From: Escherichia coli
GTDB taxonomy: Bacteria; Pseudomonadota; Gammaproteobacteria; Enterobacterales; Enterobacteriaceae
Strand: one strand, 5' to 3'
Assembly: GCF_003334815.1 (NCBI RefSeq)
Contig: NZ_QOWO01000023.1
Length of the DNA stretch: 64,000 nucleotides
Part shown: positions 14,079 through 14,097 of the stretch, piece by piece
Numbering within the stretch: position 1 is the stretch's first letter
Layout of the letters: the number at the start of each line of letters is the position of its first letter
Translations under genes and position numbers: made by a program
Notes under the pieces: model-generated
Database searches by the model: none
Seen by the model: only the letters and a program-made list of their open reading frames with translations
Told to the model about the DNA's origin: nothing

Positions 14079-14097
14079 GGGGGCGTCTGACGCCCCA
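14079..14097. terminator. Inverted-repeat hairpin between convergent ychN and chaC (possible bidirectional terminator)
   Basis: gggggcgtc/gacgcccc perfect inverted repeat directly after the ychN stop; no clear T-tract. Confidence 0.4.

Follow-up and report, generated by a model that had tools for sequence, protein, structure and literature searches.

The strong inverted repeats at three convergent gene junctions of the window (the whole 64,000-nt stretch of Escherichia coli DNA analysed here, from contig NZ_QOWO01000023.1), namely ychN/chaC (J1), dauA/ychH (J2) and treA/ycgY (J3), are real and are ordinary members of already known classes of element. The reading favoured here, at a probability of roughly 0.6, is that each hairpin is an independent 3′-UTR stem-loop common to two converging units and is not itself a terminator. 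RNA polymerase would transcribe through the palindrome; Rho would load on the RNA made past the stop codon, an untranslated tail that would be antisense to the neighbouring gene and richer in C than in G, and would free the polymerase within a few hundred nucleotides; and 3′→5′ exonucleases (PNPase, RNase II) would then trim the tail to the stem base, so that the RNA would end sharply some 5 nt past the stem, at a protected 3′ terminus that would stabilise the mRNA. This sequence of read-through, Rho release and trimming was adopted because the ends, the Rho dependence and the U-less stems match a class in which Rho-dependent transcripts have their steady-state ends right after stable stem-loops that lack U-rich tails and A-tracts, the stems protect from PNPase and RNase II, and rut-like sites with C over G lie just downstream (Dar & Sorek, 2018). 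We infer that exonuclease trimming and mRNA stabilisation would operate here and that the scheme would extend to chaC, dauA, treA and ycgY. Given that the palindrome folds in both transcripts and that a gap of 43-78 nt fits one strong stem, the same element would serve, or at least form in, both mRNAs.

The window corresponds to the E. coli chromosome in reverse orientation relative to K-12, with ~1 mismatch per kb, and the K-12 MG1655 coordinate of any position is 1,287,317 minus its window coordinate. RefSeq annotation of a collinear strain gives three convergent pairs, ychN(+)/chaC(-), dauA(+)/ychH(-) and treA(+)/ycgY(-), and, together with the comparison to K-12, bears out the gene names and hairpin coordinates that an earlier sequence-only reading had assigned to these junctions; inspection and folding of the sequence likewise recover an inverted repeat at each of the three places (Table 1). 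All three gaps are identical in K-12 and the window except at 28212 (T in the window, A in K-12), and a 1.5-kb stretch around J1 is matched in 5,423 of 5,426 complete genomes.

Table 1. Genes, hairpins, mapped RNA ends and Rho-sensitive regions, in window coordinates
Feature	Position	Strand	Basis or remark
ychN	13718-14071	+	RefSeq annotation of collinear strain
J1 hairpin GGGGCGT-CTG-ACGCCCC, in the 43-nt ychN/chaC gap	14080-14096		folding, hairpin census
ychN mRNA, mapped steady-state 3′ end	14101	+	K-12 1273216 (- strand), 5 nt beyond stem
ychN-sense read-through RNA, antisense to chaC	14102-14460	+	bicyclomycin-sensitive (Rho) region
chaC	14115-14810	-	RefSeq annotation of collinear strain
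ychH-sense read-through RNA, antisense to dauA	27962-28197	-	bicyclomycin-sensitive (Rho) region
dauA	end at 28193	+	RefSeq annotation of collinear strain
ychH mRNA, mapped 3′ end	28198	-	K-12 1259119 (+ strand), 5 nt beyond stem
J2 hairpin TGACCAGTC-N10-GACTGGTCA, in the 54-nt dauA/ychH gap	28203-28230		folding, hairpin census
ychH	start of annotated span 28248	-	RefSeq annotation of collinear strain
treA	end at 41638	+	RefSeq annotation of collinear strain
J3 main hairpin CCGACAACG...CGTTGTCGG, in the 78-nt treA/ycgY gap	41651-41689		folding
Small palindrome CCATAGCTATGG (41699-41710), then directly T6 (41711-41716)	41699-41716	+ (treA strand)	tail score, folding
ycgY	start of annotated span 41717	-	RefSeq annotation of collinear strain
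ycgJ-sense mapped 3′ end	60252	-	K-12 1227065 (+ strand), 4 nt beyond stem
pliG/ycgJ U-less hairpin GACGGGGACTCTCCCCGTC	60256-60274		census, tail score

The three stems differ in how far they exceed chance. J1, which begins 8 nt past the ychN stop codon and 18 nt past that of chaC, folds at -12 to -14 kcal/mol and is marginal against dinucleotide shuffles of its gap (z = -1.3/-2.5, with 18 and 3 of 200 shuffles folding equally well); J2 is moderately beyond chance in the same comparison (z about -2.6); and J3, a helix of 17-19 bp with partly G·U pairs on the + strand (-29 kcal/mol on the + strand, -22 on the - strand), lies far beyond it (z = -6.1/-4.1). Across the window, 25 strong perfect hairpins were counted, where shuffled sequence gives 13±3; intergenic DNA, 16.5% of the sequence, holds 18 of them, an over-representation of about four-fold; by chance, roughly 0.01 strong hairpin would be expected per gap of such size. 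U-tracts were gauged by a weighted T-tail score after each main stem on both strands, which comes to 0.07-1.0 for the three main stems, with a window background mean of 0.70 and values of 3.0-5.3 at the window's canonical terminators (ldrC, ycgB/fadR, dsbB, ychF), and a consensus terminator scan flagged none of J1, J2 and J3. The absence of a U-tract noted from the sequence thus stands for the main stems on both strands, but CCATAGCTATGG and, right behind it, T6 also lie in the treA/ycgY gap. This small palindrome folds at only -3.5 kcal/mol and has a tail score of 4.5, its G-C pairs being too few for the terminator scan to flag it; the T6 abuts the ycgY stop codon. Together they are predicted to form what may be a weak intrinsic terminator for treA, which J3 may use in addition.

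Term-seq, which had been proposed as a check on the hairpins, places the ychN and ychH 3′ ends 5 nt past their stems in two independent studies: the primary ychN end of Adams 2021 (eLife, PMC7815308), from MG1655 in LB at OD 0.4 with a read count of 85,855, recurs at 1273215/6 in the TRS study (PMC10687069), and the primary ychH end, found in LB at OD 0.4 and 2.0 (PMC7815308), is identical in the two (PMC10687069). Positions were read from the 61-mers of Adams 2021 as 50 nt plus the end nucleotide plus 10 nt, a layout confirmed from the thrL row, and the ychN RNA at its mapped end reads …GGGGCGUCUGACGCCCCACUAU. The distance from stem to end does not discriminate between mechanisms, since the Adams dataset has values of +4 to +5 for U-less hairpins and +4 to +7 for canonical ones.

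The same dataset shows that the drop in coverage across the ychN and ychH sites, which is 5- to 12-fold, depends on Rho. In the ychN sense, coverage falls from 88 to 7 without bicyclomycin and from 471 to 461 with it (Rho score 12.3, p = 2e-17), so that the downstream/upstream ratio moves from 0.08 to 0.98; in the ychH sense, the corresponding figures are 102 to 20 and 75 to 85 (Rho score 5.78, p = 1e-10), and the ratio moves from 0.20 to 1.13 (Adams 2021, suppl. 2). Inhibition of Rho therefore abolishes the drop at both sites. The Rho score peaks at K-12 1272857(-), 359 nt downstream of the ychN end (window 14460), and at K-12 1259355(+), 236 nt downstream of the ychH end (window 27962), although these scores use 800-nt windows and resolve the release site only to that scale. 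Beyond the ychN end, C/G is 1.53 in the first 100 nt of RNA, and the downstream C/G in the RNA sense is 1.0-1.55, which for most 100-nt bins equals or exceeds the 75th-90th percentile of the window. As the upstream 800-nt window comprises the gene as well as the stretch past the hairpin, the ratios of 0.98 and 1.13 mean that the hairpins would stop essentially nothing in the ychN and ychH directions once Rho is inhibited. Bicyclomycin also lifts the upstream coverage at ychN about 5-fold, and polymerases that read through from further upstream may not behave like those initiating at the ychN promoter. Of the possibilities raised from the sequence, Rho-assisted stops and RNA-stabilising 3′ hairpins are accordingly best supported jointly, for ychN and ychH, by ends at +5 nt and read-through in bicyclomycin, with stabilisation as the step that would follow from them. 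For chaC, dauA, treA and ycgY, the Term-seq tables of Adams 2021 and the TRS study (PMC10687069) list no 3′ ends, and the TERMITe supplements make no mention of the genes at the three junctions.

The alternative that survives best assigns no role to Rho. Hairpin-type overlapping bidirectional terminators between convergent genes have been described as neither intrinsic-like nor Rho-dependent and as acting via programmed RNA-polymerase collisions (Ju, Li & Liu, Nat Microbiol 2019; Wang et al., 10.1101/2022.10.23.513370). Under this model, the hairpin pauses polymerase coming from either side, a head-on collision takes place there, and a trailing polymerase dislodges the complex (Ju et al., 2019; Wang et al., 2022/2023). 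The architecture fits, each junction being a convergent pair with a single hairpin unlike an intrinsic terminator, and single-molecule work from the Liu lab shows that the hairpin is needed to position collisions. Moreover, Figure S7B of Wang et al. (bioRxiv 10.1101/2022.10.23.513370) presents ychH-dauA, a lowly expressed pair, as a SEnd-seq bidirectional terminator with efficiencies, according to its legend, of 66% (ychH) and 52% (dauA); J2, with ends on both strands, has therefore already been published, and, by that legend, it is the one junction for which use from both sides is documented, the ychN end standing by itself at J1. Nevertheless, complete read-through on the ychN and ychH strands in bicyclomycin is unexpected if collisions end transcription without Rho, collisions should be rare given that the partners are weakly expressed and that no chaC or dauA 3′ end is called by Term-seq, and a "termination efficiency" computed from steady-state RNA cannot tell termination from processing. 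Collision-programmed termination without Rho is on these grounds considered unlikely, although the two models are compatible, as a pause at the hairpin could aid both.

The position of ychH-dauA in two published datasets that imply different mechanisms, Rho-independent collision in one and Rho-dependent read-through with processing in the other, makes this locus, along with ychN/chaC, a convenient small test case for the dispute over "bidirectional terminators"; both are compact loci at which collision and Rho-plus-processing predict opposite, testable outcomes. A more speculative proposal, which we consider a long shot, is that shared palindromes couple converging genes, one and the same stem serving the first mRNA as a processing stop that depends on Rho and the second as a pause or a collision barrier. 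If this were true, the transcription of one gene would set the 3′-end formation and stability of its partner, and natural alleles, such as the T at 28212 that weakens J2 by about 5 kcal/mol or an 18-nt duplication in strain AST215, would tune the effect.

It is very improbable that the hairpins are non-canonical intrinsic terminators, in which a G+C-rich stem alone frees polymerase both ways without a U-tract. In favour are the strength of the stems, the position of the 3′ ends a few nucleotides beyond them and the U-less terminators that have reportedly been proposed for high-GC bacteria. In intrinsic termination, nevertheless, a U-tract is needed to destabilise the RNA-DNA hybrid, and the U-tail scores are at background level. 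The sequence-only suggestion of bidirectional terminators that rely on the stem alone is not supported in the ychN and ychH directions, where read-through in bicyclomycin is complete, and this result and the missing U-tract are the reasons for the low grading; the elements share the G+C-rich stem of intrinsic terminators, lack their U-tract and, at ychN and ychH, do not persist in stopping transcription without Rho. In vitro, moreover, release at a comparable bidirectional element amounted to only 9% in one direction (Liu lab work). A role at the DNA level (sites for dimeric proteins, recombination scars) or no function at all would accord with J3 lying exactly at the edge of a variable segment, with the modest local z-score of J1 and with the existence of the J1 junction only where an intervening gene is absent, but is the least credible reading of all, as, on the transcribed strands, the RNA 3′ ends fall precisely at the bases of the stems, strong hairpins are concentrated in intergenic DNA, J2 keeps its stem although its flanks have diverged, and none of the three belongs to a repeat family or matches an Rfam family.

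How the proposed 3′-UTR stem-loops relate to described systems can be set out accordingly. At ychN and ychH, they resemble the class of Dar & Sorek (2018) in having a stable stem just 5′ of a sharp end, no U-tail or A-tract (on either strand), read-through in bicyclomycin and C above G downstream, a likeness drawn from the two of six directions that Term-seq and bicyclomycin data cover; they differ in lying in very short convergent gaps and being common to two mRNAs. With the SEnd-seq class they share the convergent pair and the one non-intrinsic-like hairpin, ychH-dauA being among its published examples, at least by the figure legend; that class is described as Rho-independent, whereas the independent bicyclomycin dataset has a Rho-dependent drop at ychH and ychN. 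Canonical bidirectional intrinsic terminators (A-tract, G+C stem, T-tract) likewise use one palindrome for two converging genes, but J1-J3 have neither A-tract nor T-tract. Lastly, REP/BIME palindromes act as 3′-UTR stabilisers and partly as Rho-dependent terminators, including between convergent genes (Harris et al., bioRxiv 2026), and the role proposed here, in which a palindrome limits read-through and protects the upstream mRNA, is similar; REPs, however, are multi-copy with a conserved sequence, whereas J1-J3 are unique and single-copy. Membership of REP or any other repeat family was rejected because each gap sequence is single-copy per genome: across 5,425 genomes the three were found at 14,037 places, equal to a single copy of each in the genomes that carry it, at a sensitivity that covers matches of at least about 28 nt. 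A 9-nt match (TCCGACAAC) between J3 and the REP at about 699-723, spotted by eye, was judged to be chance, and Rfam covariance models run on the whole window and the three gaps gave no match at E ≤ 10 overlapping the hairpins.

The sequence-only reading had also taken the recurrence of such hairpins as a shared solution to convergent transcription in this region. That idea is not supported: J1, J2 and J3 have no sequence in common, are single-copy and lineage-specific, and follow what is usual across the genome, where stem-loops of the U-less kind form the ends of more than 30% of the E. coli genes for which data exist (Dar & Sorek, 2018). Both U-less 3′ stem-loops at Rho-dependent genes and hairpin-type bidirectional terminators have already been described throughout the E. 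coli genome. The window contains 14 convergent junctions, and beyond J1-J3 U-less hairpins occur at pliG/ycgJ and at hlyE/ycgN (57910-57948), so the recurrence at J1-J3 is not special; they also lie between co-directional genes, for example at 42293-42322. Canonical U-tract terminators on at least one strand are found at tyrT/narI, ldrC/kdsA, ycgB/fadR, dsbB/umuC and minE, with ycgB/fadR (51619-51640) being a textbook two-sided arrangement of A-tract, stem and T-tract. The mapped end at the pliG/ycgJ hairpin, in the ycgJ sense, is listed by Adams 2021 solely as "antisense pliG". As a separate observation, the three ldr/rdl modules share a 9-bp terminator stem (17129-17154, 17664-17689 and 18199-18224), the tails of the first two being ATTTTTG and that of the third, which faces kdsA, TTTTTTG.

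Comparison across genomes indicates how these elements change. In an Escherichia lineage 93% identical overall, the 30-nt J2 hairpin is unchanged while the flanking gap sequence is rearranged, and dauA and ychH are also neighbours in four other genera, where non-homologous stems with A- and/or T-tracts take its place, the one in Pseudocitrobacter being fully canonical and two-sided. In view of these canonical terminators of other genera, the hairpin that an alternative treA allele has of its own and the intact J2 amid diverged flanks, it seems from the alignments that selection keeps some 3′ stem and not a particular sequence, and that the sequence turns over. Variation among the few E. coli alleles sampled is confined to loops and flanks and hence offers no compensatory pairs; at J1, neither the hairpin nor its 5-nt tail differs among the five alleles sampled, and positions 14103 and 14105-6, beyond the mapped end, vary.

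The A at 28212 of the K-12 allele gives a longer J2 stem (12 bp, about -20 vs about -15 kcal/mol for the window), the T removing two pairs at the top. That T was seen only in the window; K-12 and the matches listed among the 5,426 complete genomes have A, and the best identity among those matches to the J2 region of the window is 99.3% over 141 nt. In E. coli AST215 (L093), an 18-nt tandem duplication, GTCAGCGCAAACTGACTG, inside the hairpin produces a doubled stem-loop. The contig NZ_JAATUR010000031.1 (L009), labelled E. coli, shares only 92.9% identity with the window across 12.3 kb, loses collinearity just past the kdsA end (window ~18281) and has no chaC or ychN within 10 kb; it probably represents another Escherichia species or clade.

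The surroundings of J1 are more variable outside Escherichia. In non-Escherichia Enterobacteriaceae with both genes, ychN and chaC are non-adjacent in 10 of 10 loci, the spacer being about 0.56 kb or about 2.4 kb, and the sequence 3′ of ychN in these genera is unrelated. The one 2.4-kb spacer inspected, from Enterobacter cloacae, encodes a 594-aa protein that we read from its sequence alone as a putative methyl-accepting chemotaxis protein. Genera with the ~2.4-kb spacer have a conserved long hairpin, CCTGCTGTGTTGCCGATA…CAACACAGCAGG, no more than about 20 nt ahead of an ATG whose position would make it the start codon of the intervening gene (the chemotaxis-receptor-like ORF in E. cloacae). 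It lies on the minus strand (L013 ~20102, L015 ~18704, L017 ~19683, L019 ~18826, L024 ~18884, L051 ~19735), has apparent compensatory changes, such as CGGTG/CACCG in L051, and may be a leader structure. Literature searches on ychN/chaC terminators, as well as on treA/ycgY, gave nothing relevant.

Finally, the treA/ycgY junction differs among E. coli strains. In a survey of the variable segment (window 41580-42300), only 3,176 of the 5,426 E. coli genomes had the gap together with ycgY; about 2,150 lose homology either right at the stop codon of treA (window 41639) or 40-58 nt before it. In the allele without ycgY, an iron ABC-transporter operon comes next, in the same direction as treA. The alternative treA allele carries a different hairpin, GAGCAATGCCA-N15-TGGCATTGCTC, followed by the T-rich TTTCTTC (L006, L007 and L008, about 3480-3880). 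Within treA itself, Adams et al. report a strong Rho-dependent region at ~40207 (+), which is K-12 1247110 (-), with a Rho score of 15.1, about 270 nt from the treA start; this suggests that treA transcription ends prematurely in the growth condition of Adams et al.
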